A stretch of 62,301 nucleotides of DNA, the filler included, from Bipalium vagum (lineage: Eukaryota): the NCBI GenBank assembly GCA_037834085.1. It is 3 parts of 3 records of this genome, joined end to end, with 100 filler letters (N's around TTAATTAATTAA, not from the genome) between each part and the next. Parts side by side here need not be neighbours in the genome. Positions count along the whole stretch, not along the records: positions 20,738 to 37,093 come from JBBMKC010114947.1; 2 more parts are not named here. One strand, written 5' to 3'. Below the pieces are notes generated by a model, which was not told the origin of the DNA, searched no databases, and saw nothing but the letters and a program-made list of their open reading frames with translations. Of this stretch, positions 15,929-61,619 are shown in pieces. The translations under genes and the position numbers were made by a program. The number at the start of each line of letters is the position of its first letter. Position 1 is the first letter of the stretch.

Positions 15929-16440
15929 ATACAGGGTGCGTCAGGTGGTATTTGAGGACAAAAATTGATATTAAAGGTAAGTAATATTTTTAATGAGAAG
16001 AATGTATATTTTTAAGCAATATTAGAAACTATATTTGTTTTAAGTACATAAGTTTTATTTATTCAAAAAAATCGCCTTCATTGTCAATTACAGCTTCAAA
16101 ACCGTTTCTGAAAAGCATAAAAGCCGCGATCAAATGGTTTTTGTTCTTATTTATCATAGCAGAAATTAGAAGCCCGTAATGAATCTTTAGTATTATAAGG
16201 ATGTTTGTTCGTCTTTTTTTCTACGACGCCCCATACGAAATTGTCCAAAGGATTTAAATCGGCTGAGTTAGGTGGCCATAAGTTTGGAGTGACATGGTCA
16301 TTAAAATTTAGCGATAGCCATTTTTGTTTTTTTAATGCTGTATGGCAAGGAGCTGAGTCTTGTTGGAACACATAAGGCCTTCCGTAGGCAACTTTCAATC
16401 CAGGGCTTCTCATATGTATCCAGACACTCGATATAAAGAG
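15929..16440 (-). mobile_element. DD37D (maT-type) Tc1/mariner remnant, 3' part
   Basis: VFQQDSAPCH...WPPNSADLNPLDNFVW, with 37 residues counted between the second and third catalytic Asp. TA-CAGGGTG TIR start at 15929. Confidence 0.85.
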
Positions 16441-16899
16441 ATGCATTAATTCCAAGTCCCTGTGGAAAGAAATTTCAGTTTCGTCAATTTCCAAAACAAT
16501 ATTTTCCTTAAAAAATAATTTATTAATTTTTATATATTTTCCTTTTTTAATCGTTGTAATATGAATACGTCCTTGCCTTTGATTTAGAAATTGTAGGTTT
16601 ACCAAAATATCTGAACATCTTCATTATTTCAGGATTATTTAATTTGTAGATTTGTGCTTTGAGAGCAACTTCAACATATTTGTCATAAGATCCTGTTAAA
16701 AAATGTGTGTTTAATTTTTTTGGAACTTACTAAATCGAAATTCTATTCAATAAATTTATGTTTCTTACTTTTCCGATGAGCATCTACAAAATATTTTTTT
16801 CGTGATTTACAAATTTTGCAATATATTGTTTTGTGAATGATATAAAAATTCTTGACTGTAGGTATTACAATAATAATTAATTATTTCCTTTTAGAACAT

Positions 16900-26344: not shown

Positions 26345-26860
26345 TACTTGTGCAAAAAGAGATGCTCACTTGAGTCTGGGAACGTTTACAGATGTGAGTA
26401 GAAGGAAGATATATGCCCTTTTGTGAAGAAGACTGACCCATGATTTGTTGTTCGACGATCTTCAATTAATTTCCGAAAATTTTCATAGGATGCAGTTGTT
26501 TTTGGACGACATTCTCTGAAATCATCACCCAAATAGATGCGTCTAGACTTTAATTCATGAAACCATCGATACACTGTAGTTTTCGATAGAGCATTATCAG
26601 TTAGGCTGTCGAGACATTGCTGCTGTGTCAATCCGCATCGGAAATCATATAAAATCATAGCACGAAAGTTTTGCATTGATTAATTTATATTTTCCGCTTT
26701 GTTTGCCATATTTAAATGTAAATATTTATTTTTAAAAATGCGATTTTTATTATTAAATAAAAGTAATAGTGTTAAAAACACGTATTTTATGATTATTTTT
26801 TGATTTCTTATTAAGCCTTTGCATATTTTCCATTTCTGAAAGTTTCCAACTGCCCATCTC
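26345..26860 (-). mobile_element. mariner 5' fragment (same family as 54158-55370)
   Basis: ORF 26386-26676: MQNFRAMILYDFRCGLTQQQC..SKTTVYRWFHEL..LGDDFRECRPKT. The upstream leader aligns by eye with 55180-55370. Confidence 0.85.
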
Positions 26861-27326: not shown

Positions 27327-28227
27327 TTAATCTTCTACTGTTGGCTCTTTGAAATTCTCTCCCTTATATGGACTATGTAGGATGCCCATCGTATAAGCTG
27401 GACTACTCGGTAAATGAGACTTAACCTTTATAAAAGAAATTAAAGTTTTCAATAAAAATATTTTTATTACTATTTCATGTTTGTAATGTGGTGGAGCAGG
27501 CGTGATGAGCTTAGAGTCAGGTGGCTTAGCTCCAGTTGATATCGTATATTTCGGTGCAGCAGCCAGAACTATATCTGGTGAGCCAACTTTATAATCAGCC
27601 GGTCCGGGACCCTATGGAAAATGTTATATGTACTTTTAATATCTTAAATACCTCTTTGGACTTATCGTATGTTAGGTATTGACTGACAGAGTATTTAGGT
27701 GCACTGGGCTTGTCACTAGTTATATCCGGAGATGGTAGTTTATACTCATTGGGACCTAAAGTACAAGTAGATTTCATAAATGTTGATACCAGAAAAAACA
27801 TACCAGGTGTGTCATCTGTAGTAAATTTATTTAAATATTGTCCAATTATGTGTTCGGGAGCTTTAGTCCACGCGATCGTTTTTGATCTTTCTAAATCATA
27901 ATCACTTGGCCCAGGAGTTACTTCTTTCTTCAATGGATCCAGTATTTGACCAATCGAGTACTTTGGAATGGAGTGTATACCCTGGTGTGTTAACTTGGAA
28001 TCCGGACCATATGCTGCAGGTCCAGGACTTTTTGGACCTCTGTCGTATTCTGATTTTAGGCCAAAGGAATATGATGGAGCCTTATAATAAACACTTCTCA
28101 TATCATGACCCTTTTCTCCAAGTAATGGAGGTAAACCATAAATAGGTCCAGGGTTTGAAAATTGTGCTGCAATGGGTACTCGAGGCTTTGTGTATGGATA
28201 TCCTTTAACTGGTTCGGTATTTTTCAT
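27327..28227 (-). CDS. ODF3: outer dense fiber protein 3-like / SHIPPO-repeat ciliary microtubule-associated protein (255 aa)
   Basis: Exons 28227-27804, 27755-27652, 27611-27471 and 27425-27327 total 768 nt from ATG to TAA; GT-AG introns are 48, 40 and 45 nt. Motifs: PIAAQFSNPGPIYGLPPLLG..HD..KAPSYSFG, repeated PGPxxY and APKYS/T units, C-terminal PAYTMGILHSPY. Confidence 0.93.
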
Positions 28228-28987
28228 TGCTTTTTGAAAGATGTTTAAATCGATGTTAAATTCTTTCGCTCGGTAACTAATTATGAAATAATTTATCTAT
28301 TTAATATATTTGAAAAAATCTATAAAATCATTTTTAAATATATATTAATTAATTTACCATAATTTCTTTTTTTGGATTAACAATATGTCATGAAAATGTA
28401 TTTTTCTTAGAAATATTTATCTTTTGTATTACTTAAATATTTACTTAAAATATTTTTAATATATTTTTAAATTAAATAACTGAAATATTTTGTTTTTATT
28501 TAAAATATTATACTTTTTTTTGTATTTAATGGTATTTATAATTTTTATCATAACTTATTTTCGATAAATTCTTTTGTCATCAATAATAAAAATTTGTTTA
28601 ATTTTGTATTAAATATTCTATTTATTAAAATCTTGACAATTGATATCATTGTTGGGATCCACAGTAAAACTGATAAAAAACAAATTCCAAAGAAACAGAT
28701 TCCATAGATCGCTGATGAACCTCAGGAGCCGATGGAGAGTGACGAAAGCTATCCGAAACTTGTAATCAACATTGGAAACATTTGATTTGATATTTGATTT
28801 GAATTTACATTACATTTTATTTTACATTTTACATTTTATATTTGAATATGCATGAAAAGGCTTCGTAGGGCCAACTATCTTTATTTCTATATTTCTGAAT
28901 AAAGGATGTTGGGTTATGGAATTAATAATAATAGGAAGAAGAATTTATTAATAAATAATAATAATTTTTTATAAAAAAATTTTTTTT

Positions 28988-29396
28988 TGTTCTCTAGACA
29001 AAATTTTACCGTGGGGATTTTCGGCAGATTAGACTAATGGATTCCCTGACAGTCGTTCTCGGGTGGACTACAGGATTCCATTAGCCTTGATATGAGTCTA
29101 TCTCGGCGTGGAGATAGAGTTGATGGCTATTAGGGAAAATAGCCATCTCTAAGCGTAGGAATTGGTGATCGTAGACCAATCTCTACGACTATTATTTTGG
29201 TTACATTTTTATTTATTGGACTCATTAATTATAGGGTGATTTATAGAAGTGGTTTGTCGTTCTGATTATTATTTATTGTGTTTTATCTAAATAAAGTTTT
29301 ATTTTAGAAGTTTTGAATCAGTTCTTAGGAATCGGATACAGTATTATTGTGGGTGTTTTGATTCGAATAAGGTTTGAAAAAGTAACGAACACTACA
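28988..29396 (+). other. hairpin-rich element: candidate LTR or structured ncRNA
   Basis: Four consecutive stem-loops at 29034-29187. TGT at 28988, AATAAA near 29290, and possible ACA ends at 29340 or 29396. Identity and strand are unresolved. Confidence 0.35.
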
Positions 29397-29523
29397 TTTT
29401 TATAGAAGTGAGGAGTTATCTGACTCGTTATCTATCTATTCGTTGATGGAGAAAATCAGTTCAAACAACAATAATCTTTATTGATATCACAATACAGAAT
29501 TACTGTCTAATTAATGATAATTA

Positions 29524-30459
29524 CAGAACCCTCCAAACGTTTGTTCACTCCTGTAAAATTTACGAATTTACTTAATTTGTGTTTTAATAACTGAAGTTTT
29601 AAATTATTTAATAATAAATTTAATAAATAATATTGATGTATGTTAATTATTTAAATTTTTATAGCTTTTATTTCAGTTACAGAATGTCAAAAAAATATCC
29701 GAATTTAATAGAAATGTCATAGTTGTACTTATGGAGTAGGAAAACCTGGAATAAAATTTAATTAGATTTACGGAATCAATATTTCACCAGTGTATCTAGA
29801 CGTGGAATGCAAAAGATTTGGTAAAAGTTTTTAAGAACAAACAAAACGAAAGATTTAGCTTGCCTTGGAAGACCTTGACAGGTATCAATAAGAAGTGAAA
29901 GATTACTCAAAAGAATTTCAAGGGCAAACAATAACCTTTCCGTGGCACAAGTAACTAATAACTTCTTATCTCAAAACAGTACTACAATATCATCGAGTAT
30001 CGTCAGAAGAACTCGATAAAAATATGGTATTCATGGTTACAGAAACATAAGGAAACATTTCCTATCAATAAGACAAAGACAAAAGAGAATTTTATGGGCC
30101 AACAAGCATAAATATTGGGATTTTAATAAGTGAAAAAATGCTGTCTTCAGTGACGAAAGCATTTTCCAGTGTTATAGTCAGATGAGAAACATTGGATGAT
30201 ACGGATAGCGAATTACAAACCAGGAAATATACACCAAACTATGAGTCACGGACCTAAAATACATGTATGGAGATGCTTTTCTTCGAATGGTGTGGGATTA
30301 TTAAAGAAGGTAGAAGGTTCCATGGATGCCAAATTATACCAGAAAAGAATAGTATTCAATTTCACTATGCTCCCGTGCTATTAAGGATAAATTGAAAGGG
30401 GTGTATTTATAACGTTAATTCAAATTAAAGTTAGGAAAAATAAATTTGGAGGGTTACTG
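29524..30459 (+). mobile_element. internally deleted Tc1-like transposon with both TIRs and TA target sites
   Basis: TA-CAGAACCCTCCAAA at left and TTTGGAGGGTTACTG-TA at right. Reads AVFSDESIF and TMSHGPKIHVWRCFSSNGVGLL. Confidence 0.88.
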
Positions 30460-30966: not shown

Positions 30967-32244
30967 TTAATCTTTCAACGGAACCAGCACCTCAACGAAG
31001 TTAACTGGAAAAAATCCAGTCTGACCACGAATTTCGCCTTCGAACCAATTTTCATCAACCTTTTGTGACAATAAAAAAACAAAATAAACATTAATAATAA
31101 TAATATAACCAAATAATTTATTATTATTGTTCTTATTATTACTTTATTCTAAAGGATTTTCCGGATAAGTGGGAAATCTTTGTACATGAATATAAAGTCT
31201 ACACAATAAATTATTTGATGTGATCTTCATTAGCTACCACAATCGCTTTTAGCTTCGACAGAAATCTGCAGCATATCAGTTTTTTCTTCTTCCTGATTCA
31301 AATTTACCATTACTTTCTTGACAGAATCCTCTAATGAATTGGCCCTGCCCTTCAACTATGTCACATCGATATTCGACCGGTTGGTAGTCAGGACTGAAAG
31401 GAGAATAGAAGTCTGGTGATCAATTTTTGATTAGATTTTCGTAAACCGATGCCAGAGAGCTTCTTGCTTTATGAGCAGGAGCAGAGTCTTGTTTAAATAC
31501 ATACTTTCTCCACCCGACTAATTTGTCGATCAAGAGATCTAAAACCGTCTCCATTAGGTTTTAATATCTCCCTGTGTCGACTACAAGATATTTCTCGACA
31601 GATGCTTGTAACTTAGAATGTCTGACAGTAGGAATGCACTGAAGAATGCTGGCAGATTCAGCGGTCATTTTCAGATTATACTTTCCTGTATGGAACTAAA
31701 TATCTATTATCTAAGAAGAACGTTAAAAACTCAGTGCTATCATGCCTCATGTTAATGTTTCTTTTACTACACTAACTGCTGAGTTTAATACCTTTACTTT
31801 GTATGATACTTCAGCTATATTTTTTGAGAAATCAGTATCCATCTTCTCTTTTAAATCGGCCATTAAATTTGGATTATTTTCTGATAATAACGTTTAATGT
31901 ATGTTTTCCTTTTTGTATTTAGATTATCTTTGTAATCATTCTCCTCAAGCCTTGTATCAGGTGTTTAAAACTATTGTCTTGCTATAGCCAAATCAATCAA
32001 TTAATTTGGAAGTTTACCCGGTATGAAGTGATTGTAGCACTAATGATCTTCTATTGTATTGTGAAGTCATATCTAAATCATAAAGTTAAGTTTTCTATGA
32101 TTAATATTCTCGATAAATTAACTTAGTTAAACAAATGAAATTTTGATGAATTTTACAAAAGTACTATGTTAAATACAACACTGACTATATTCCGGGATTA
32201 TCTCGAACACCGTATATTAAATATTAAAGCTAATTATGATAATA

Positions 32245-35399: not shown

Positions 35400-35860
35400 T
35401 TATTGAAAAAAATTTTTAATCTGCCAATCTGTTACAATTGAAAAACAAGATATCCTCCTACTGCTTCGATTATTGCGAAAATCCTTTGCTCCATAGAATC
35501 TATGAGTCTGTAGCGGTAATTCTCGTTTCCCACGATAGTGCTTTTCAGCTTCTGATAGGTGCTGAAGAAGTCGTCACTGGTGATAGGCTTTATAGCCATA
35601 AGATGAAGTTGGTGTTTCATGCGTCCCCATACATTACAATGTGGTTAGCATCGGGACTGATTGCTGCCCACTACAGAAGAGGTGTGGCATGATCATCAAA
35701 CCAATCTCTAGTTTTTTTGGAAGTATGAATTGGTGCATTGTCTTGCTGGTAGAATTTGATGTTGTTCATTTGATATAAAGAAATGAGGTACTGTTCTAAT
35801 AGCTCAACATATTCCTCAGAATTAAACCAGCTGTTGAACTCTAACCAAATCACTGTAGCA
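35400..35860 (-). mobile_element. Tc1-like transposase 3' remnant
   Basis: FYQQDNAPIHTSKKTRDWF, WAAISPDANHI and RLIDSMEQRIFAIIEAVGG. Confidence 0.85.
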
Positions 35861-38154: not shown

Positions 38155-41100
38155 TTCTTACTGGTGAAGATGAAAGAAGAGCAAATTATTTGAAGGGACA
38201 AGCAGAACTAGCAAAGCGAAGAGCCATACTCGAGGAACAAATGAGACAAGAGGAGGAATCGCGTAAAGCGAAAGAAAGAGCAGAATTTGAACGCCTGGAA
38301 AAAATCAGGTATTATGTGAATTATTATTTGATAATTTTGAAGTAAATAAGAACTATTTCTTCCTGACATATTATTATCATTATATTGGTTTCAGTCACAC
38401 CGTTTGCTTACAAAATTGTATTGATATTTGTATGGTCAAGAAATTGGACGTATTTGGTTTACAAATAAGTTCGGTCTTTTTTTTACAAAATTTAATTTAT
38501 TTTACAACTACATGGATAAACTAATTAATTAAGTTATTTCCATCGCTTCAAACTATTTTTTCCACCTCTCCAGTAATTTTCGAATTCCATCTTTAAAAAA
38601 TGTATCGTGTTTTGAGGCCATCCAAGTTAGGAGCCATTGGTCAATTTTTTTGGAAGAAGTGAAACGATGACTTGTCATATCGTGTGGCATCTGTCGGAAT
38701 AACCAGTAATCTGAAGGAGCAATGTCAGGCAAATACAGCTAGTGCGCTAAAACATTCCATTTGGTCGTTTCCAAATGATTTTTTACGACTTTTGCGATAT
38801 ATGTGGTCTGGCGTTTTCATGCAGAAGATTTGTCTTTTTGGTTGTCTTTGGTCATATTCCGGCATTTTCTCCCACAATAAACAGTTTAAATGTATCAATT
38901 ATAGCCTATACTGATCGCCCGGTTGTAGCAGCTCAAGGTATACAACACCTTTTTGTTCCCACCAGAAACAAAACATCACCTTCGAATCATGAATATTCTT
39001 CTATGGTGTTGACATTGAAACCAATGAGATCAATTGACCGGGCTTAAAGTTAAATTTTTTTCATCTTTGGGTTCTCGAAGAATATCTATTTTTCATCACC
39101 AGTGACTATACGATATAAGAAACCATTTCTTTGTTGCTTTCGAAGCAACTGCTCGCAAATGAAATATCGCCTTTCAAGATATATCTGTTTTAGTTCATGA
39201 GGCACCGAGTTTCCTTACTTGTAGATAATTAAAATTTATTTCAATCTTATGGAAACCATATACTGAGTAGTTCCCAAAGATTCTGGGAGCTCCTCTTGTT
39301 TTTGACTGGGGTCTTCATCAAGTAATGCTTCTAAATCTTTATCTTCAACTTTTTTTGACTGACCACAACAAGGCTAGTCTTCGAAGCTGAAATCATCATT
39401 TTTGAAATTTCGAAACCATTCTTGACATGACTTATCACTTTTGTTAACATACACTTCAGCTGAAATTCTAGGGGCTTCAGCTACACTTTTATCCCAAATG
39501 AATCAAACAATTATAACTTCCGGCAAACGTTGATTTGTTATTAGAAAATTTGTCATGATTGATGAAGTAAAACAATGTCATTTTGTAAGAAAATCAAATC
39601 GAATTTAACTGAAAATTATTCACAGATGTTTAATCTCTCTGAATCAATTGAATTAAGTTGTAATTATCATTATAGCTATAATAAAGATTTATAGCCAGAG
39701 CCATCTTTTAAAATCTGACCGAATTTGTATCCAACTAACTGACAGACTTTGGCTGTTAACGTCGTATGGATAGATAAATTGCATTATTTTTGGAAAAGCG
39801 TCCTTATTATTGGTTTACTATGTTTTCTAACATGGTATGCAGAAAATGCTTGATAGACAAGAGTACAAGCTCACATACTCATCCAAAGACTGACCGACAT
39901 CAAATGAGATTAATGGGTTGTGTTTAGTGGGATATAATTTACTGGGAAATGCTGAAAAACACAATCAAATTTTCAACGCCGATTTCTAATAGCATCAATT
40001 GCAGCTAGTGGCAGATGCAATTGCCAAAAACAACCAGAATTGTGTAATTTTTTTTAAAAATGCCCTACCATACGCTGTCATTATTAGTGATGAAAAACGT
40101 TTGCCCAAAGTAATTGAGTGTGGTAATTTCATCCCCCTCTACTCACCTTATTCTGCTGACATATAATCTATTCCGAATCTTGCAGAACATTTGATTTCAA
40201 AACATTCCCATATAAAAACGATTTGAAATACGATCCATAAAAATTGTGCAATTACTTTGTTTCCAATCCAATATGATTGATTTTAGATTGTTAACATTTA
40301 GATTTTTAAAAGATTACAAGTAGTTTTAAAGGGCTAAGTTTAAAAATAGATTTAAAGTCTTTAATTTATAATGTTCTTAATTAATATAAATATTATCCAT
40401 TTTTTATATTTTATAATGTGATTTGTTTTAATGTTAAAGTATGTAAAGTACATAATTTAATCATTTATTAAAATAACAAAAGAAGACCGGAAACCAGCAT
40501 AACAAAAGCCTCAATTGTTATTAATGTGTTCTATTTAATAATTCATGGATTGGGATATCAATAAGTTTGAAAAATAGATTCCTTGATTGGTAACAGGATA
40601 TTTGAAGTTTAAGACTTAAAATTTTTTCTGAGCTTTTGTAAATGTGTGAATCTTAAAATTAATGATTCTTTACGAATATGGTTACATATGATAGAACTTT
40701 GATTTATTTTTACGACTCCGAAAGTTAAAATTGGGTGATGGATTGGTGACATCCTCCTTATCTTCGAGCAAAAAGTTCATAACAAAAAGAAATTTGGAGG
40801 ACTTCTTGAAATAAGGCAGCATCATAAATAGTACATAAATACTTTGCATAAGCTTAGGAACAATATGATGAGGAAGAAAAAACAGATTACAATTCAATTC
40901 CGCATAATTTAACAAGTCATGTACAAAAATATTCTTTTTTACATCTGTATAATCTCCTGATATTGATCTTTAAGATTACCATAATTCCTTACAACGCTCT
41001 ATTTTATAATTTTTCATTAACATCACCGATTTATGAAACCAGGACCTTATTTAAATATGATATGTTTAATAATTCAAAGTGGACAAGTCAGACATGTAGA

Positions 41101-42507: not shown

Positions 42508-45500
42508 CAATACTTTATTGAAAATACCTTGAAATGTAAGTAATTTGAAATTGAAAAATCTCTTTATTATTAAATTTCATCAATATTCAACTTGATTTAT
42601 ACAATCAATATCATAATAATAATTAATTTCTAAAATATGAAATTAATAAATCATATAATCGATTTTTTAAAAAATATACCACTGATCATAATATATTGAT
42701 GGACATTATCGATCACCGTCTAAGCCGACCTCAATGTAAATTAATTACACATTCTAATGTGAACTGAAAACATAAATATTGGCAAAATGTAATTTAATCA
42801 TTTCATTTCATTTTACTACTTAAAAATAGAAACAATCATTGTATAATTAAATTACTATTCCAACATAGATGAATAAGTTCTGTTTTGGTTGAATGTGTAT
42901 TATTAATGATAATTTTTGCAATTGAAATAACATAACAATTTTCATATTTACAAAAATTATCAATATTGAAATTTAAGAATTGATTGAAATATAGGGTTTT
43001 TCAAAATGTGCTTTTAAGTAAATTCGAAATTAAACTCCCGACATTGACACCAAGAAATCGGTTTTCGATAGGCAACTTGGCTATAGCTGTCTAGGATGGA
43101 GTTCAGAACATAGATTCTATTCATTTATTGCTGGTCCTAAAATCTGGAAACAATCAAATTCTGCTCAGAGAAATTATCTATTGGCCACACGACCGGTGTT
43201 GACTGAAAAAACGTCCTTTTTGAAATTTGAGCCGCTTGTCGAGATTGATGAAACGCTAATATCTCGCCGGCACGAATTATTTCGAGAAAATACATCTATA
43301 TACCAGTTATTCGACTAAATTTTTTCACTTCAGAGATTTTTTAAAAGCAGTTTTTGATAGCACCTTTTATTTTGCAATGAATATATGAAGCACAAAAACC
43401 AATTAAAATAAAAAATGTAATAGTCAAGTTTATCATAATGGAAAGTAACTTAAATATTTTTTATATATCAATAATAATTTCAACAATAACTTATAAATCA
43501 ATAAATTATACAAAAATGAATAAATAATAATATTAAAATTGACCAATTATTATAAAATATTATATTGATTTAATTTATTTTTTATACTTCAATTGATATT
43601 AAAAATAATATGATTTGAAAAAATTCAAATTCAACGTTTTATTTTTAAATATTGATTTTTTATTTTTTTCAGGGGTTATAATGATTCAGATAACAAGATT
43701 ACCGATTTCAAAATAAGTTGATTTCCTATAATTATGTAACCTAAAATTATTGTCTTATAATTTCTTGTAGATCTTCCTAATAACAAATCAGATGATTTAA
43801 CTTATTATGAGGCCGTTTATGCTTTCGAAGGCCGACTACACGACGAATTGAGCTTCAAGTCGGGCGATGTTATAATTGTAAGATTAGGATTTGATTATTT
43901 ATTTGCCATTGATTTTTAATTTTTACATTATTTTTAATTTTGTTTTTATCAAAATATTTTTTAAAATTTAATTATTAAATAAATCAATTTATTGGCTTTT
44001 TAGAAAATTTTTTATTTATTAATTATTGGATTTCTGAAATTATCAAAGTTCCACAAAAAATTATATATTTTTGAAAATTTGTTTTTTACATTTTTGTCTT
44101 ATATTTTTATGAATATTTTTGATTTAACAATTACACTGATCATTAGCACTTAAAAGAATCTATTATAATGAAATAATACTAAAGAAATTTAACTTCACCA
44201 AAATTAACATGGTGCTCAGATATAATTTTAAAATTATTCTAAATGCTAAATAAAATATTTGAGGACTTTTTATTTATTCCATAATTAATTTTTAATATAT
44301 TATGTTGTAATGACGAAAATCTGAAATCAGCTTTTAAAACAATAACAGAATTTGAACTTCACTCGGTTATGTCTTACATTTTTTTTTCCATTAAAAAAAA
44401 TTCCAATGATTCTCTTTATACGAGTCTGAAAATTCATTTCTTGACGCCATTGTCTTATTCTTAAGATCAAAAAGCAGGATCAAATAGAACCAACCTCTGG
44501 ATGGCTATACGGTTGGTTGGAGAACACATCAAATTTCGGCCTTTTCCCAGAAATTTATGTCAGAAAACTCGACAATCAAATCGATAATGAGACTTTACCA
44601 GTTGTGGATATGAATGAGAATGTCCAAACACAAGATTTGTCAGATGTATTCAATTGTAATACAGTACCAAAATCTACTATAACCAAGTATATTTTGATTT
44701 TTATTCGATATTTTTTTCAAAGTTAACGATAATTGTTCGAGGTTTTTCAAATTTTTAAAAAATAATTTTCCTTATACTTTACTATCCTTATAAACATTGC
44801 GGTCATTTCCAAGATCGACTTCTTTTCAATGGGCCGAATCTATTTATCCATGGAAACCAGAATCCATTGGGTTATATGGAGATTATCCCAATCAATTGTC
44901 ATTTGACATTGGTCAAAAAATAAAAATTCTCGACAAAAATCTTTATGATTGGTGGACAGGAGAGATTACGAATGTGGATGTAAATGGTAAGGAAAAAGTT
45001 TTAACAGGATGGTTTCCGAGAAATTATGTTCGTTTATTGGATGAAAAAAATGCAAATAATCCTGAAAGTGGTACGGTAACCCCTACTGCTGGTTCTTTAG
45101 AAGACCTGGCAACAAAATAGTGAGTTTGGGTGTGGTTTGGTGGCATAATTTATTATTGGTTTTTGTCTTTGTTGTGTGAGTGTATCAGGGTCATAGTATT
45201 CTTTATGTATCGATTATATTTCTGTTATATCATTTCTAAGTTATCTGTTTTTCGTTCAGCTCCAGTCTCAATTTCTCCATGAAATATGGAGACTCAAACA
45301 CTGTGGAGAATAGTGGTCCGAAAATATTGTGTGTAGCTAGATATCCTTATCAGGCATCTGTTCTCGGTGATCTTAATATCCAACCTGGAGACATAATCGA
45401 TGTGATCGATCAAAAGCAGGATTGGTGGAAGGGCAATAATCGTAACACAGGATTGCAGGGATTGTTCCCCTCCAATTACGTGAAGGTCGTTTCTTCAGAG

Positions 45501-48329
45501 GTAATAAATATTTTTTATTCACAATTGATTTTTTATGATTTTTATTGAATTTTTAAATTTTTCATTCAAGTAAACTATCATTTTTATATAAATGCAATGC
45601 AAACAAATTTGGCACTGTAGATGATGTTGTTGGTGTGTTTTTCATTTATTACACTAATAAAATTGATTTTTTACTCGATGAAGGAATTAAATTTATCAAT
45701 TATTTGATATTGTGAGGAATTTTTTTATTTTTATCCTGTCACCATGACAACATTTATAAAAATTTAAATTTTGCGAATATCAGGAAATTGCTTTTTAAAC
45801 AGATCTATTCAAACATTCTTAGATATATTTAAAATTAATATCTCATGATTATTTTAAAGATTTTTATTTAATAGTTTTAATAGACATAATTTTATTTTCT
45901 TTCTGTTAAATTGAAAAAAATTATGTTAATTTTATTTAAAAAATAATCATATTTAATTCAATTAACTTTTGTGCTAAAATAATGTTATTGTCGAGAAAAT
46001 AATAATTATTCGGTAATTATATATATATATTGAATGATGCAATTTACAAAGTACACTTGTTTGCATCTGAATCGGTATACATCAAAATATACAATCATCT
46101 TTGTACAATAAAACCTGATTCAGTAATTTCTAAATTTTCAGAAAAATATTTACAGTTAAATTTCTTTAATAAAACTTTACCTTCTTAAGTACACCTTAAA
46201 TCTGTTTTTTGAAGGTGTTAATTGAAAATATTTGTTTATATTAAGTTTGCCAATTCTTCGAAGAAATGAAAAGTCGATATTTGACATTAATGTTTAGAAA
46301 ATCAAAAGAATATTTATGCTACAAAACGTTTTTTATACAAGGTATTTCCGAAAATTCCCGGACTGAGGCCACAAAAAATATACATTAATTATAACACATT
46401 TATTTTTAAAATATTTTTCAAAATAGTCTTCTTCGGCATCTGCACATTTTCGCCATTGTTTTTTCCACGAAGGGAAACATTTTTTTTACCAAATTGAATG
46501 TGCGCAAAGAGAGTGGGTATTATCACGATTATCATCTCTTTCTCATCTTTCTGCTCTTTTCTGACAAATAGCCTCTTGTTCTCTTCATGCTCGAGTTGTC
46601 AAAAACTTGAACCCATATTTCATGGATTTTGCCTAATTTAAAGGAAATTTTTATGCAAAATTGCTGCTCTAAAATTTCATTCATCCTAAAAATAGAAAAA
46701 TATGTGACTAAATACGTATTAGAATTAGTTTTAAAACTTATTGTGAGCGCCTGACCTTCCATTTAAAATAGATGAATTGCTAAAAAATATATTTTATTAG
46801 TTTAAATAAAAATTTTAATATTTTTACTATTTAATTACTTTTTTTGTCCTGGAATTTATTGGAAACACCTTGTATAATCTATATTTTGATAGTATTTTTT
46901 TTGGCAAATAGAGGAGTATATTTTTCATTTAATTCTTCAAAAATTATTGTGCATAAAAAAATTGAGTCTGTCAAAACAAATATATTGATTTAATATTTTT
47001 TTAAATTGAACTTTACATTTTACAATTAATATTAATCGAATTACCGGTTTTATTACAATTAAATTAAATGATTTTATTTTAATTATTTGTAAAATTTGTT
47101 GGTATCACGCTTCTTATTAAAAAAAATCATTGAAATTTAATTTTTCAGGAATTGGCAAACTCAGAGTCTTCGATATTTTCCACAGGAATGCAAATTGATG
47201 AAACAGCAGAGTCGAATATGGATGTGATGAATGCTAGTCAGATTAGTGCAATCAGTGTGAATTCAACGGCTTCCAATCTATACAGTGTATGGTTTACCTT
47301 TTTATCTTGAGAATCTATTTTGTCATACACTATTATTTTCCTTCTTTTTCTTATCTTACTTTTTGGTAATTATCTTATTATAATTGTTATTATTTTTACT
47401 AGATATTTTTCATTAATTTTTAATAACCACACATGGCTTGATAAGCTTCCAAATTCTTTCCTATCGTTAAATGTGTGAGTTTATTTCCTGATACAATGAA
47501 ATCAGTTAATATCAGTAGTCATTGATTATAAAAGACTTCGTGCAAGAAAGAGAAGCTTCTTTCTTCAGTATACAAATATTCATCTTGTAGTGTGGTCCAA
47601 AGAATAACTAGGTTCTTCAGATATGCTACATCGCTTCCTCAAGTAACAAAAAACACAAGATTATTAACGTTTAATTCAGAAGATTGAGCCGACTGGATAA
47701 TAATATTGACTCTTTCAATTAACCAGTTGATTTAACTTTTGCACATTGTTTTGTTATCATGTATCCTATTATTATTATAATCCATTTGAATAGAAACTTT
47801 TCCGCAAAAGTGCATCTTGTTTAAAACCACATTCTTACTTTCATCAAATTGTAAAACTTCTCAGAGTTTTTTATGCAACGAATAGACTGTGATACTTCTA
47901 TCCTAACAGAATAGCTCATTAACACTAAATAAATATTGAAATTAACGAATCCATATTTATTATTGACAGATAGTACATAAATAATCATTTTTAATGATAT
48001 TGAAAGAATCATAAAAGAAAAATGAAAATTATCATGTTCTTACCTTGAAATCAATTCTGTGTACCGTAATGTCTTGAAAAGGAAACATCGGAATTTTCAG
48101 TAATTTTTTAAAATTTTAATTTAATTAATTTAATTTTTAATAAATAATCATTTTTAATGATATTGAAAAAGCATCGTAAAAGAAAAATGAAAATTATCCT
48201 CTTCTTACCTTGAAATCTCAATTCTGTGTACCGTAATATCTTGAAAAGGAAACATCGGAATTTTCAGTAATTTTTTAAAATTTTAATTAATTATTGTTAT
48301 TGGACATTAATATAATAATTATAAATGAA

Positions 48330-48383
<54 letters not shown>

Positions 48384-51300
48384 TAATAATAATAATAAAT
48401 ATCTTGGCCATAATAATGATTATTATTAACTTTTTCTCTTTTGTTCGGATGATAAGACTGAAATAAAAATATTTTTAATTTAGACAATATCTGATGACGA
48501 AAACAATTCTACATTACATTTTCCGCAGTCTGTAGCTCCTTCTAATACCAATGGAGCATCAACACCAGAAATTGCACAAGTCATTATTGACTTTAATCCG
48601 AGCAGTGCTGAGCAAATACCATTGCAAATTGGTCAGTTAGTACAAGTAACAGAAAAGTCCAGTAGTGGCTGGTGGAAAGGAGAAATACAAGTAAATTTAT
48701 CAATCTAATATCGATGAAAAAAACATAAAAATTTCATTCCTTCTTAACCAAGTTTTATTTCATATATTATTACAACCAGGAGATCAATATAAATTTTTGA
48801 GTAGTGTTAAATTTTTTTAAAAAATTTTATTAATATTGATTGTGAATAAATGAATTCATAATTATTAATAAAATATAATTCAATATATTTATTTCTTATA
48901 ATAAATGTTTTATTGACAATCAATTTAAATATTACTGAATAAAGATTATGGTATTTAAAAGAAAATAATGTATTGGGTTGTTCGGAAAGTCACTTCGTAT
49001 TTTTTATTAAAAATAAGACAAAAAGTTTTATTAGTAATAAATATTTAATCAATGATGTATTGTTCTTTTTGTTCCAATACCTTATGCCATCTACCAGGTC
49101 AATTTGAATATCCCAACCTTTAAATGAGTTAGGTGCTTTAAATTAAGATTGAAAGATAGGTATAAAAAGCGAAGTGCCTTTCCGAACAGCCCAATAAAAT
49201 AGAATGCAAAATCAAATAGGCTTCGTATATAAAAATATATAAAACAATAATTATTTTTCATTTTTATATAAAATAAACATAATTTATAAAATGTCAATAT
49301 CAACCATAAATGAATCTAACATTGAAATTTATGTATTATTAATTGATTGATTTTGTGGTTCAATTATTTCTGAATATGGGAATATATAATGATACTATTG
49401 TATTCGTTATAAAATTATTAGATTTTTATGAATAAAAATCATCAATTATCCATTCTACACAAAAAGATACCTAAAAATATATTTTTAAAAAAAATTATTA
49501 TAATTACTCTCATTTGTATAAAAAATTAAAAATGATGAGTATAATAAATAAGGGAATTAATAAATATCTGTACATTTATTTTTTACTCTGCTTTTCATAT
49601 TATCAATAGTTTTATTTTACTTTAAATGGATAATTATTTGATTGAATTTTCTAATTAGCAAAGAGGACAACAGCGTCGTATTGGATGGTTTCCGGGACAG
49701 TATGTCAGCATAATAAATTCTTCTCAAGCTGTTGGTGAGTATTGATTATTTTTATTATTATTATTGTTATTATATGAATTTCTTCTTGAACGAAGATTAG
49801 CAGATACAAATATTTTAATCGATAAATTTAATTACAACTTTATTGATTCATAAAAGTGATATTATAAGAATAATAACATCAATTTAATAATGAAGATTAT
49901 TGAATAATCAATAGTCGTTTGTAAATGATGTAAAATTTTTTACATGAATAATTCTATTACATAAGATGTCATAGATAAAATACAGGGAATGCATATTTAT
50001 TGATTTTTTTAAAAATTATTCAAGATAATAATGTTTTAATTTTGTATTGGACATACAAAATTATTTTAAAGTAATTTATTGTGCTCGCTAACTAGATAAT
50101 AGGTCATAATATCAACTATTTGTGTTAAAAAAGAAAATTTCACACAAAATTATTTTTAATCGGTTATTTTATCCAAAAATTGAACTAAGGTCTCGAACTG
50201 CTTTACTGCCAATCATTAAAATATAAATATATCGATCAAAATAAAAAAGAGTATTGAGAATATTAAATTTTAACCGTAATTAGAAAGTAACAAGTTGATC
50301 AATGTTTCAGTTCCGATTAGTTTGAAGTTTTTGAGGTTATCAAAATTAGAATTAATAACATTTTCTTCTATCATAGCTGTAGTTTTCTCTTAAAAGTTAT
50401 TTTATTTTGTCATTTTCATTAAGATATATAAATTATTTTTTTATTATTAATTAATTATTATTATTCAGCTTCTGATAGCGCGACTCCTCCTAATTGTACA
50501 ACGCCAACACCAACGTCTTTTTTGACTTACAACGATAACTTATTTTCGAATGTGATTGAGCTAAATGATTCTCTACCTGGTGATCATCTAATAACAATGT
50601 ACAATTACTCTGCTCAAAATATTGATGAATTGAGTTTCGACAAAAACGTTATTCTGGTATTAATCGATAAGAACGAACCTGAATGGTGGATGGGTCGTAA
50701 TTTATCAACTTCACAAGAGGGTCTATTCCCGGTAAATTATGTCAGGCGACTTCAAGCTGGAAATGTGGCGGATGAAGATGCAATGAAAGAAGTAGCACAG
50801 GCCTCTTCTCAATACAACGTCAGCGTTGCAGGCCGACCGGTTTCATGTTAGTATGAAAAATATATTTTTTGCATTCTCGACTTAATGATGTCTGCTTGTT
50901 TGCTCTTTTTTACAGTTGTGCATGTTTACTATGAATATTTCTTTTCTTTTATAATACTTTTAATCTTCTTCGACGTATCAATATTGTTTTTTGAAAGGCA
51001 GATTCCTTGGTTTTTTTTAATTAACTTTGATAGCATTGATAATTGGATTTATTAAACTAATTATTTTTTCAATTATTACTTTTGGATATTGGATATTATT
51101 AAGGCTTTGGAAATAATTTTCATTTTGTCTGTGATAAAATTAATAAAATATTTTTGAAGGTTTTCCCTTTGAGGACTTGTGTAAACAATGATTTGTTTAA
51201 ATTATTCAAATTTTATTTAGGGTTGTTTAAACGTTTTTTAATGAATATGTATTCTTAAAATTATGATGGTCATTATTTCATAACAAAAGCTGTTTCGGAG

Positions 51301-54300
51301 TGCTCCATTATAAAATGTTGAGGAATTTGATAATTTATCGATTTATCGATTTCTTTTATATAATAATTTTCTAAGTTAATATAATTTTTCTTATTATTAT
51401 CATAAACATTATAGTAATTAAATAATAATAGTAATAAATATAATAAATAATAATATTATTATTCAATAAAGAATGTAAACTAATGAAAATTGAGTGTAAC
51501 ATATAGATATAATTAATACTGCAGAAATTTTACCGATTGCTGTATTTACACTTCTGATTATAGTTTAATAGAATATTGAATCGTGTTCATTCTTCTAAAC
51601 AGTTATTTTTTGTTGCTAATATGAGATTAGATTCTTATATTTGTAACATTTAGATTTTTTATGAAAACAATTGATTTTATATATTTAAATCTGTGAAACA
51701 AAAGAAAATTCTACATCCTTAGATCGGTTTTAAATTCATTTCCTTTTCTCCTAACTATGTTTTATAAATGTTATCCACTTTAATTAGGTTACCATGAAAT
51801 GTCTAATTTTTATATAAACTTTAAAAATAAAAATATACAATAATTAATACAAGGGGATCTCTATTTGCGTAGAGATACGTTCCAAAACAAGTTACAAAAA
51901 AATCGGTTCCAGTAATTTAAAAAATAAAAAATGTGGGTACATTTGTATATTTTTATTTTGATAAAAAAAATAATCAATAATAACAACGAAAAAGTAAAAA
52001 TGACGATTCATCCTTACATTTCAAAAAATGAATCAATTTTGGTTTCCTTTTTTCTTTGGTCATACAATTGACTATACAATATTTTTAAAATATTAACTTA
52101 AAAAAATTAAATTACGCTAACTAATTTTTTCGGTATGGAAACTATTTCGGCCTGCAATTGGATATCTTTTTATACCAAATTAAAGCTAGAATTTCAAGGT
52201 CTATTTACATTGTGTATGTTAGCATATAATTTTTTAAAAAGATTTATTTTTCATCGTTTTCTAAAATTGGTTAGAGCTACAAATTCGACCATATTTATTG
52301 TACTAGCTTAAATTGAAACATCAATGCTGCATTGTGTGAAGGCAGTAATAATGCACGGACCACAAAGTGGTGGTTCACTAAATTTTGCAATGGTGACATG
52401 AGGTTGGTAAAGAAAGATCATAGAAGATCAATCTGTTGCGAAAATAAAGGCAGGTGAAAATTAGCTAGTTTGCCTTATAGTGAGAAAACTTGTCCAGGAT
52501 CTCAATGTGTCAAAATTCACAATTTCTTGGATTGGGAAGGTTAAGAAGTTCCGGTTCCATATTATTTAATTGAAAACCAACAAAATGCAAGATTAGAAAT
52601 TTGTTCTTTAATTATATGGAACCAAACTGATCCATTTTTGTCATACGTAAAGTGGATTGCATACGATAAAAGGGGGTGAAATGGCTAGACGCCGATGAAC
52701 AACCAAAACAAATGCCTAAACCAACCCTTCACTCAAAGAAAACAATAATATCTGTTTAGTGGTGCTTAGCTAGCTTAAGCTATTATCATTTCTTAAAATT
52801 TTTGTGAAGCTATTACTGCACAGTCATGTTATCAGAAAATTGAAAACATATACAGAAAGTTGATTGACAAACAGCCGGGGTGATAAATCAAAATGGGCAA
52901 ATCTTGCTTCACAATAATACAAGACCACATATTTCTCAAATGATTGCAAAGAATTTGCATGAATTACAGTATGAAGTTTTGCATTATCCACTTTATTCCA
53001 CAGATCTTTTACCAATAGATTATCATTTGTTCAGGCACATGAATGCTTTTATCATCAGTAAAATTTTCCGTAACCAGTTTTTTTAATACAGAAGCTTAAA
53101 CTCAATCAAATTGGATTCAATACACTATTATATCGTTGGCAAGAGTGTTTCAACATTAATGGGAAATATCTTAATTCAAACATTTTTTATCAGTTCTTTT
53201 ATGAATTATTTCATTTATCGTAAAAATATGACATTTCATACTGGACAACATGATATTTTATAGGTTTAATTAATTATTAAGCATGGGAAGCTGGTTGAAG
53301 TCTTTAAGGGTGTTTTTATTTATATAATCTCCTGTATGCATAGAACTGGAATAAAATGCATTTTATTCAGATTTTTACATTTCGAAACAACCCCATTAAT
53401 TTTAAAAGGAATTGCTTTCTTTGCTTTCTATTTTTTTGTTCTGTGTACAGTTGCAAACTTAAAAATGTTTTAGAAAACGAATTAGTCAAAAAAATTTATT
53501 TATTCAATCTCAATTTGGAAGTTTAACGACAAAACTCTTTCATTTCATTAATCAAAATTCCGAATCATAATCGAAAATATTTCTCTTATTCATTAGGAAA
53601 ATAATCTATTTGTGTTTATCCATATTAAGATTTATGTTTGTTCAACATTTTTAAAAGTCATTTTAATATACATATATTTTTTTACTTTTATTTCTTTATG
53701 ACTAAATTTTATTATTTAAATGGTATTTATTATATTTCGGAAAGCACAAACTTTAAAATTGACCAAAAAATTGGCTTTTAAGCAAATTACTTAAGTCATT
53801 CGTTTTATGCGAATGTTTTTTATTTTTGATTAATAATTACTATTTTTATATTCTATATTTAATTTTTTTCGCTTCATTCAATTTTCTTATGTGAATTGAT
53901 TACGCTTACTGGAGGTTTTTATTAGTATAAAGAAAGTACATCTTATTATTTTTGTTATTTGAAATGTTTATTTAATATTTCTAAACAATTCTTTTTGATA
54001 TTCGATCATTTTTTCTATTAATGTTACTATTCTGATAGGCAAAATCCACATTTTAAATTTTTACCTTTCGCATTAGCAACAATGGTAGCTCACCCAAAAT
54101 AATCGAATTATTCAAAATATTTCTCTTATTATTTTTTGACTTAACAAATCTCGTGTACATATGTCAGCCGGAAAGTTTCTGGAATGTCACATAAAAACAT
54201 ATATTTATTATAATAAATAACATCATTGTTTATCGAAGTATTCATCATCACAATCTTTACACTTTTGCAATCTGTCAAATCACTCATTGAAACATTTATT

Positions 54301-57206
54301 CCAATCAGAAAGCAATATGTCTAAAACACGTGATTTGGACTTGAAAACCCCGACCTACGCATTTTTTATGGAATCAAATATGAAAAAGTCATTTGATGCC
54401 AAATCTAGACTATCAGATGGATGACTTAATAATTCAACGTTTTGAGTCCTCAAAAAATCGAATGTTTTATGGACTATATGGTAAGTGGCATTATCATGAT
54501 GAAGTATAATGGAACGTTTCGAGTTGTTTTTTCTCGATTCTTTGAGGACTTAAGGCAAGCAAACTGTGATACACCAATTCGAAGTAACTGTGCGATGATC
54601 ATCTAAAAAAAGGTAGCCACGTGACCTGATTTGGCTCCGAAACAGGCAACCATTTGCTTGGAGGTGTTCCGGGATCGAACAATTTTCACTGGGAATTTTT
54701 TCTCCCTGAAACACTCAAACAGTTGATTGGTGATTTATTTCGAGTTCATATGTGTATTCATGATTCATCGTCTCTGACAGTTTCATGAATATGTTTTGAG
54801 ATTTCATACTTTGGACCAATTACCGCGATTTCCTTTTTTTATCAATAGTAAGGATATGCAGAATACAACGAAAACTTAGCTTTCTGGCATCCAAGTTTTC
54901 ATGTAAAGTAGAATGGAGTGAATTCCGAGATATGTTCAATGATGTCTGAATTTTATGATATGTTGTCCAATGATCTTTAATTTATTTTCATTGGATGCAC
55001 TTTTTTTTGGACGACCTCTGAAATCATAACCCAAAGAGACGCATCCAGGCTTAAATTCATGAAACCATCGACAAACCGTAGTTTTACATTTTTTATTTAT
55101 CAGGAAATACCAAATTTAGATGATCGAGACATTGTTGCTGTGTTAATTCACATCGAAAATCATATAAAATTCTTGCTCGAAAGTTTCCCATTGATAAATT
55201 TATATTTTCCGCTTTGTATACCATATTTAAAATAAATATATATATTTAAAATGCGAATTTTCTTATTAGATAAAAGTAATATAGTATTAAAATAAAATGT
55301 TATTAATTTTTTTATTTATTACTAAATCTTTTCATACTCTATATTCCAGAAACCTTTCGACTCCCCCTCGTAAATAATAATGACAGAAACAACGTCAAAT
55401 AAACGGTTGTGCATAATGTCATAGTTTTAGCAATTTAGAAACATAAAAACTTATTTAAATATAATTTGTAATTCTGCTTATTTTTCAAAAATAAAATGTT
55501 TCACTTTTAAAAACCAAGGAAAGACAATTTTTGAATATATAAATTAAAATAATATATATAAATATAAAATAAAACTACATATTTCCCAATATCAATATGA
55601 ACTACTGACCATTTAAGAAAGTTTTTATTTAACAATTTCTTTGTGGTTACTAAGAAATTTTTATTAATCAAATTCCGTGTCATTATAAATAATAAATTAA
55701 ATTTATTTTATTGGGATGGAGTATTTTTCTCTTCCTGTCTAGATATTTTGAGATATTTGATTGGAATATGGTACATATATTAATTTTTAATTTTAGAGAT
55801 TAACAACTTTTAAATTGCTTTTCGATTGAATTTTTAAAATATTATTTATAATTTCTAAAAATTTTATATATTTAAGAGTTTTTTATTAAAAATTTATTTA
55901 CGATATTTTGGTTTTTTTCCAATCAAATTCTAATTAATAGATGTCACATATATATTCATCTTAAGATTAAAATATTTTATTGTTATTAAAAAAATAATTT
56001 ATGGCGAAAAACCTGAATTTTAATCAAAATAAAATTAATAGTTAAATATATAAAAATTTTTTTAATAAAATTATAAATCAAGGATATTCTATACACAATA
56101 AATTAATAACACGTTTATTTGTTGCAGGCATGATGAATATATAATTAATTTAGCGATTGAAATCTCATTAAGAAAATTATTAAATATGTAAAAAATAATT
56201 TATTAATAAGTGCATATTTTAATTGATTTTTGTTACTATTAAAAGTAACCTAATAGTATTGACTAGTACAAAGAAATCCGTGCTGATATTTTATTATCAT
56301 TAATACTTGTAATTTCTCTTTTTAAAGTAAATTATTTTTTTCAGAGATCATTAATGTATTGGTGAAAATTTTTTTATTAATAAATATCTAGTCGAATCTA
56401 TTTCCAATTCTTTTTATTTTCTTAAGATTTCTCAATGTTTTTCAGTTGCTGTTACATAATTCAAATGTGCCGTTTGGCCTAATTTTACTCCAAAAAAGAA
56501 TTTTTTTTAATGGGAAATTATTTGTTTTTGTTGTGATCACTTTATCGGCAGAAAAATCTTTTAAAAATATCTTCATAATTTAAATTCATTCATTGGTATA
56601 TTTATAGAAACCCATTGTTTTTTTCTATCTTCTAAAAGGACTTTCATTGTTTTAGAGTGGACAGCGGAATAATGTCATTCGATATTTTATGAATATTGAC
56701 TTCATTTCTAACGGTTTGACTCGTGCCATCATCGTTGATCTTTCTCCAAATCACAGTAACAGATTAGTGATTTGAAAGAATCGTTTTCTGATTTGAGAAT
56801 GTCTGTTCTTCGTGAATTGAATGTGTAAATCCTTTCAACGCTGCTATGATCCAAAATTTAGTATAAAATAAAACAAATTGCACGATTTATTTATTGGTTT
56901 TACTATTTTTCTTTATAAAGATTGTGTCCATATGTTTACATGTCTTCAAATAATGAGTTATTTAATGATGAGACTTTATTGCTTTTTTCATTGTGTGGTT
57001 TTGGTTGGATAAATATCTCTGTTAAATGGTACATTTATTTAAATATAAGTATTTTTGACTCTTGCTAATTCCAGTTGATTATTATTAATAATCAAATTTT
57101 TTTTTTCTTATCATTTTATGCATAAATATAATTTTTTTACTATTACTGATTTTTAATTATTTTTATAATAATGAATAATGAATAATTGATATTATTTTTT
57201 ATTTAG

Positions 57207-57244
<38 letters not shown>

Positions 57245-61027: not shown

Positions 61028-61619
61028 GTAATTTTTTATTTTTAAATTTTATTTTAAAAATGTTTAAATGATAAAGCAGATCAGATCAACAAATCATGTA
61101 GTTTTTTATTTTAAAAAAGCACAATAAACAAGTGTTTCAATTTTAAATTATTGAATATTAAAAATTATTTTTAAATTGCAAAAATTATCGATTTTCCATG
61201 TTTTAGAGTAATTAAATATAATTTTGAGATAACAGCAGAGCAAATTTGTCTTACTTTATAATAACCATAAAATCAGTATCTCTAGAAAAATGAGGTGTTT
61301 ATCTAATATTTGAACGATGGTTCCAGACTTTTTCAAGAACAAACAATATATGATAATTTAAAACGACTCAAGAATTATTTTACAAATAATTGTTGCTTAG
61401 TCAACTAATTTGATTTGTTGCAATATCTGAAGTTCTTTTATTATTGGCAAAGAATGTATAAAAAGACTTGAATTTCATAACAAAAATGATCAGTATTACT
61501 TAAAACTAAATTTTAAGTTATTTGATGCGTTTTCATTTTTTAGTATATAACAACACCCGTTCAAATTGGTATTTATTTAAATTTGTTTAAACAAACTAAG
61601 GTTTTTCGAAATACTCGAA

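Follow-up and report, generated by a model that had tools for sequence, protein, structure and literature searches.

Genes and transposon remnants around the hairpin island

The window, a stretch of 62,301 nucleotides of the Bipalium vagum genome (GenBank assembly GCA_037834085.1) that joins three parts of three records with filler between them, is AT-rich, with a GC content of 19 to 36% per kb. It holds exons at 4568-10085 and at 44794-61045, both on the plus strand, which by eye resemble those of a protocadherin gene and an intersectin-like SH3/RhoGEF gene, respectively. The gene nearest to the hairpin island is an ODF3/SHIPPO-repeat gene at about 27357-28227 on the minus strand, in at least two matching pieces. 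Its five named relatives, from trematodes and cestodes, share 42 to 47% identity with it; the best match (68%) is unnamed. The ODF3 ATG (28227, minus strand) lies 782 bp from position 29009, in agreement with the distance of about 0.8 kb upstream given in a preliminary description of this DNA. Only 422 bp separate it from the repeat described below, at the left edge of the latter, so that any promoter lies within this gap or within the repeat.

A broken Tc1-type transposon relic (29550-30391, plus strand; Pfam HTH_Tnp_Tc3_2, E = 1.4e-6), with a contig depth about 30 to 40 times that of the flank, adjoins the element on the right. At least eight mariner/Tc1-like transposase fragments are present in the window (2348-2671, 5813-5938, 8003-8137, 16150-16620, 31258-31509, 35644-35751, 38598-38801 and 52901-53068), two recognized by weak Pfam DDE_3 matches and the others by tblastn. 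The runner-up region in folding (31393-31680; z of about -2.5 on both strands) overlaps a transposase fragment. A 108-bp repeat occurs in two copies of 87% identity (26609-26716 and 55124-55231), the first of which overlaps an ORF at 26386-26679 (minus strand) that by eye is mariner N-terminal-like. The features of the island and its surroundings are listed in Table 1.

Table 1. Features at the hairpin island, in window positions; depth is relative to the single-copy flank.
Feature	Positions	Strand	Description
Direct repeat, 10 bp, left copy	28639-28648		Left edge of multi-copy stretch; may be chance
Repeat-encoded ORF tail, 5'-truncated	28649-28785	+	45 codons, 1 internal stop in window copy; depth ~140-290x
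AT-rich spacer	28786-29008	+	AATAAA at 28898 and 28950; purine run 28933-28943
H1	29031-29087	+	Long interrupted hairpin; depth ~150x
H2	29097-29118	+	Perfect stem of 8 bp, loop 6 nt; depth ~400-600x
H3	29122-29147	+	Perfect stem of 10 bp, loop 6 nt
H3 right arm	29138-29150	+	13 bp; candidate 3' subterminal inverted repeat
55-bp core	29138-29192	+	Common to a far more abundant family; depth ~2,700-3,400x; sharp right edge
H4	29154-29187	+	Stem 13 pairs long, 1 mismatch and 1 G-T in window copy; loop 8 nt; candidate 3' terminator stem-loop
Right multi-copy block	29198-29416	+	Depth 60-530x; AATAAA 29290-29295, GT-rich run 29347-29360, ACTACA 29391-29396, ~20 further shared bases; R-U5-PBS of an LTR or a separate repeat
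Direct repeat, 10 bp, right copy	29480-29489		~60 bp beyond multi-copy stretch

Folding and repetition of the island

The arms of hairpins H1 to H4 lie exactly where the preliminary description had placed them. As a whole, the 192-nt island folds to -64.5 kcal/mol on the plus strand (z = -3.0, equalled by 3 of 200 shuffles) and to -65.2 kcal/mol on the minus strand (z = -7.45, equalled by none of 200). Two segments covering the island rank first and second by energy among the 636 N-free 192-nt segments of the 62 kb; among the 67 segments with a GC content of at least 0.36, three have z below -3 on either strand, the island segment being the strongest. The plus-strand z weakens to -1.4 when the chosen limits are shifted by 16 bp, as chance folding of a GC-richer patch would allow, but this explanation is contradicted by the first rank of the island, its minus-strand z and the letters found elsewhere in the family, which improve the stems, and we regard it as scarcely credible. 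H2 and H3 are two of the five perfect hairpins in the window (arm of at least 8, loop of 3 to 12, at least 3 G/C). Folded singly, H2, H3 and H4 have z values of -3.2 to -5.6 on both strands, and H1 has -5.9 on the minus strand but only -1.75 on the plus strand. A weak G-U-rich stem that had been proposed at 29009-29024 did not exceed chance on the plus strand (z = +0.76; -1.99 on the minus strand), and a hairpin at the right end (29380-29425) folds no better than shuffles. The stems differ from each other, as had been observed, and no tandem array overlaps the island. The stronger z of the minus strand was not taken to mark it as the functional one: plus and minus fold with equal energy, and the G-T pairs that only the minus strand would form (29050/29070 and 29160/29181) involve minority letters.

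Repetition was assessed from the contigs of one public DNA sequencing run, possibly the assembly's own source, which were mapped to the window and are the sole repeat evidence. One contig matches 27200-28735 with no difference at a depth of 23.5, and the run thus comes from the same organism. Against this single contig on the unique flank, 2,392 contigs map to the 951 bp at 28590-29540, of which 169 are at least 99% alike, 444 are 95 to 99% alike, 966 are 90 to 95% alike and 813 fall below 90%, so that 1,779 of the 2,392 are less than 95% alike. Summed contig depth, an index of repetition only and not a copy number, is about 60 to 600 times that of the single-copy flank over 28649-29420 and about 3,000 times on the core. 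It is 79 to 289 times at 28654-28877, climbs towards the edge at 29192 through about 150 times at H1 (66 to 149) and 400 to 600 times at H2 (416 to 593) to about 3,000 times on the core (2,706 to 3,384 over 29134-29197), and is 64 to 528 times over 29198-29421 and 1 time at 29422-29453. The profile covers either side of 28919-28995, a segment skipped in mapping, and the linkage between left block and island in other copies falls outside it. One contig joins 28727 and 29126 on opposite strands, and about 60 single-copy bases follow 29420. Within the window, neither blastn nor nhmmer found a second copy, and two pattern scans of metagenomes returned no match; three viral contigs match the pattern of the H3 palindrome and have nothing else of note in common with the stretch. 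Given the pile-up of contigs and their divergence, the window copy is a decayed member of a high-copy repeat. The stretch is very probably a transposon relic of some class, and the hairpins, although real, likely have an ordinary cause, namely a decayed transposon end.

The core consists of the right arm of H3 (42 to 54 bp before the depth edge), 3 nt, the stem-loop H4, 5 nt and the edge. The most frequent loose end lies here: at 29192, 197 contigs depart from the window and carry on in a common sequence (agreement 0.72), which consists of 5 nt completing a TATA-like run, the inverted H3 right arm, 6 nt and a partial arm matching at six of seven positions. Another 85 contigs enter at 29137 from other sequence that still ends in the 7-bp left arm, with a different 6-nt loop. 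Since the sequence before the core in the 85 contigs differs from that after it in the 197, and since none of the eight joints listed goes back, a simple H3-H4 array is unsupported; the joints listed are incomplete, an evident small offset at 29123 having been missed. One contig, about 80% alike, spans 29092-29251, and another joins 29192 to 29276. The 40 bases past the edge contain 58% T, versus 38% in the window, and there is an ATTTT whose end lies 48 bp past the arm; neither this word nor a T-rich flank is rare in the window. An exact 12-bp direct repeat (29240-29251 and 29399-29410, 159 bp apart) lies in the right block, its first copy differing in most other copies. The motifs CCAAT, GATA and TAAT in the stems were discarded as signals, not being rare enough to count.

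Variation among family copies bears on the stems. Among the 40 variants listed of 67, seven lie in stems. At 29033, 29070 and 29160, 84 to 95% of the depth carries a Watson-Crick partner where the window has a mismatch, and the source elements thus had better stems. The variants at 29045 (40%) and 29145 (93%) lead to G-T, on the plus strand only; those at 29075 (25%) and 29122 (68%) break a pair. No two-sided compensatory change occurs among the same 40 of 67. The stem variants show a slight preference for the plus strand, a pattern that fits RNA or single-stranded DNA alike.

On the left, the multi-copy stretch starts abruptly at about 28649, inside a plus-strand frame ending at 28785. Among the nine differences listed in this ORF tail, all five of intermediate share (0.37 to 0.75) fall at third codon positions, and the four near-fixed ones (0.85 to 0.96) fall at first or second positions, as expected of selected active lineages together with private decay of the window copy. 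The third-position bias alone leaves the strand unfixed, one minus-strand frame having the same positions; we prefer the plus frame for its single internal stop and its resemblance to a soluble tail. As a query the tail is weak, with 45 residues of low complexity, and it matched none of four candidates of 80 to 2000 aa, none of 1.84 billion representatives and no Pfam family. A YPxL-like word in the tail was set aside as private to the window copy, since 93% of the depth differs there.

RNA gene, LTR or other mobile element

The preliminary description had offered two origins for the island, an undescribed RNA or part of an LTR. In the first case, the island would be a member of a multi-copy family of structured RNAs (snRNA-, SL-, SmY- or SINE-like), giving a discrete plus-strand RNA of about 180 nt. 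The strong folding and the letters of the family, which favour pairing, with G-U on the plus strand only, would suit such an RNA, and several expected flatworm RNAs have yet to be found (PMC2770079, in part). However, Rfam yielded no match in the window at the gathering score and none over the island at E <= 10 (two plastid matches at 29461-29514, outside the island, are due to chance), and neither a tRNA nor an A or B box is present; the preliminary description had likewise matched no canonical U1, U2, U4, U5, tRNA or hammerhead motif. With its series of hairpins and the U-rich word behind them, the island does resemble Sm-class snRNAs and spliced-leader RNAs, and the Sm-site-like ATTTTGG is indeed there, but it lacks the purine of the consensus RAT4-6GR and is in no contig mapped there; the depth value of 19 at 29197 comes from a single contig that differs at that place, and holes in the depth may stem from the mapping filter. 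The same word occurs 20 times in the window, counting both strands. The island sits inside a longer multi-copy element that carries a protein tail, both of its sides are also multi-copy, and the 20-fold difference in depth between H1 and H4 means that the four stems do not travel as one unit. We therefore consider an RNA gene improbable, and of the two origins offered it is the repeat that was right in kind, though the LTR form is not the one we favour. Two other RNA candidates were rejected: a hammerhead at 28712 of the retrozyme or Penelope pLTR kind, whose core words lie inside the ORF tail, whose stem II is unclosed by eye and which has no Rfam match, and a telomerase RNA, for which there is only the hexamer CCCTAA, by eye too short as a template, on the minus strand.

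The main rival to the interpretation preferred below is somewhat less likely: the island would be the palindrome-rich U3 promoter of a Gypsy-like LTR retrotransposon. The hairpins might then serve as inverted binding sites, with a TATA box downstream of them at about 29190 in most copies, and AATAAA, the GT-rich run and ACTACA might form R-U5, followed by 20 bases of degenerate primer site; from the window copy, both the left part and the segment behind the TATA box would have been lost. On the plus strand, the palindromes, a TATA-like run, AATAAA at 29290, the GT-rich run, CA and about 20 shared bases beyond do follow each other in LTR order, although the TATA-like run is found only in the loose ends of other copies and all of these are common words here. 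At the AATAAA at 29290, 25 contigs begin to match, the GT-rich run lies in the deepest bin of the right block, and the left and right blocks are of similar depth. Seven nucleotides after CA stands AGAAGTG. This word is presumably in register with a primer site of the tRNA-Leu type. It also lies within a PCR primer for Spoink, where it is not called a PBS (PMC10965091). The order corresponds to the layout of animal Metaviridae (PMC3601003, in part), Sirevirus LTRs offer a precedent for palindromes and hairpins that precede the TATA box (PMC4728375, in part), and Gypsy elements are abundant in planarians (PMC6431247 and PMC11410931, both in part).

Other signs of an LTR held up less well. The TGT reported at 28988 exists but has no matching end or target duplication, and TGT occurs 1059 times on the plus strand; the AATAAA is likewise in place but common, with 218 occurrences on the plus strand of the window. 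ACTACA is present as described, with 29396 as its last base, but the sequence after it that had been called PBS-like starts with TTTTT, has no TGG and shows no variant in this T run among the 40 listed of 67. By eye, no inverted match to ACTACA occurs in 28890-29010, although truncation could explain the absent TG start, and the purine run of the spacer is not followed by TG and is one of a common kind (51 similar runs on the plus strand). U3 is as a rule less conserved than R and U5 (PMC3601003, in part), yet here the depth of the supposed U3 core exceeds that of the supposed R-U5 at least 5 times, mostly 10 to 50 times. An ORF tail before and a primer site after a single LTR would call for a rare recombinant (PMC4079214, in part) or an ORF inside U3. 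Neither a second LTR nor a 4- to 6-bp target duplication was found in the window, and by eye none of its 20 ORFs of at least 100 aa is gag-pol. What the repeat has in common with Sirevirus and Metaviridae LTRs is that a GC-rich group of palindromes able to form hairpins precedes a TATA-like run, which is followed by AATAAA, a GT-rich run and CA. It differs from them in that inverted termini, a TG start, a primer site with TGG and a target duplication are all missing; Sireviruses are moreover plant Copia elements, not flatworm ones, and the window stems differ in sequence. Helenus/TRIMp3 (PMC10886601, in part) and ta-TRIM (PMC4558846, in part) are also short repeats with LTR-like signals, from which the window differs by its single candidate LTR, its attached coding tail and the lack of a tRNA-like sequence, A box or B box. 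Helenus was excluded, the stretch having no tRNA-derived part of the kind given in the excerpts of PMC10886601, and ta-TRIM (PMC4558846, in part) serves as a flatworm precedent only.

Alternatively, 28649-29416 would be the 3' end of a non-LTR retrotransposon or of a cut-and-paste DNA transposon, with the core amplified separately as a satellite or internal tandem array. The abrupt 5' truncation inside the ORF, right after a 10-bp direct repeat with its partner at 29480, points in this direction, as does the succession of an ORF, a long noncoding stretch, AATAAA, a GT-rich run and a conserved last 30 bp, and arrays inside retrotransposons can seed satellites (PMC7004042, in part). But 46 of 1201 control zone pairs (3.8%) give as good a direct repeat, about 60 single-copy bases separate the partner from the shared end, and neither a poly(A) tail nor a rise in depth marks the right end. 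We hold such an element to be unlikely.

A candidate Helentron end

By analogy with published elements, we tentatively favour the reading that the hairpins are the right-hand end of a Helentron-type rolling-circle DNA transposon, which fits the depth profile and the spacing better than an LTR does. The probabilities that our wording expresses, here and above, are judgements and not computed values. The right arm of H3 would be the 3' subterminal inverted repeat (subTIR) and H4 the terminal stem-loop; the element's Rep/helicase would recognize the two on displaced single-stranded DNA and finish the copy shortly after H4. The core would outnumber the rest about 20-fold since short non-autonomous derivatives (HINEs) retain nothing but this end; ends common to such derivatives give the kind of climb in depth observed towards 29192. 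Where copies continue with the inverted arm and the partial repeat, the 3' end of one element would be joined head to tail to the 5' end of the following one, and the right block would be of separate origin. The window copy itself would be dead, cut off on the left inside the ORF and lying beside another repeat fragment and the Tc1 relic.

In Helentrons, subTIRs of 12 to 15 bp lie 38 to 60 bp from a 3' end that carries a palindrome, the last 60 bp are the part common within subfamilies, and the 3' stem-loop lies 8 to 35 bp from the end (PMC4067079, in part). A stem-loop a few nucleotides downstream of a 13-bp subTIR has been described (PMC2374699, in part), as have HINE/DINE-1 elements with a right flank of 60 bp and a left flank made of a subTIR, 1 to 12 bp and an inverted repeat of 7 to 12 bp (PMC7492417, in part). 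In the Helitron2 element FoHeli, the 3' repeat is itself part of a hairpin, 38 to 51 bp before an ATTTT end (PMC5148889, in part), and tandem Helitrons have been reported and ascribed to terminator bypass or circular intermediates (PMC4067079 and PMC5148889, both in part). The window resembles these elements in having an arm of that length at about 40 to 55 bp from the depth edge, taken here as the putative terminus, with a stem-loop just behind it, a roughly 60-bp end in far more copies, a following start that carries the inverted arm and a partial repeat, and a T-rich flank. It differs in its two extra hairpins upstream and in an H3 arm that equals none of the 15 subTIRs of Table S2 in the excerpts of PMC4067079; the 5 bp between H4 and the edge (11 bp if the end is 29198) is below the range given there.

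The inverted 5' subTIR with a partial inverted repeat 1 to 22 bp away is absent from the window copy; such a layout, which matches the left flank given in PMC7492417, appears only in the loose ends of the 197 contigs directly behind the edge. Several observations weigh against a Helentron end. No Rep, helicase or endonuclease sequence was found, the only coding sequence being the 45-aa tail, and neither a 5' end nor an empty site was seen in the window or the contig data. Random flanks do not appear at the edge among the six loose ends listed (285 others exist), and the commonest loose end is one shared continuation, so that a Helentron requires frequent head-to-tail joins; the same continuation moreover makes a good TATA box, which would be expected of an LTR. 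Directly at the edge begins the right block, with a depth like that of the left block, which suggests one element, and two of the seven listed stem variants (29075 and 29122) break a pair.

As for novelty, none of the titles listed in literature searches, as opposed to repeat libraries of the Repbase type, describes the repeat, which probably represents a new family within an element type already known; neither a Helentron nor an LTR would amount to a new mechanism. If the LTR reading is true, the palindrome-rich promoters that Sirevirus LTRs have in plants would find a counterpart in an animal. If the Helentron reading is true, a flatworm would harbour an abundant HINE-like family, of which the Helentron survey PMC4067079 names none in its excerpted text; no flatworm term occurs in that text or in its 10 supplements, several of which are figures with little text. 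A bolder version, which we think unlikely, is an undescribed rolling-circle family whose short derivatives stand head to tail in thousands of copies, forming a hairpin-studded satellite of transposon ends; if true, this satellite would be a candidate for DNA of centromeres or heterochromatin, and over-replication by the rolling-circle route would be directly recorded in it. For the annotation of this genome, the finding is a correction: what looked like a striking noncoding RNA candidate 0.8 kb upstream of a ciliary gene is very probably the relic of a transposon, and repeat masking should cover it.
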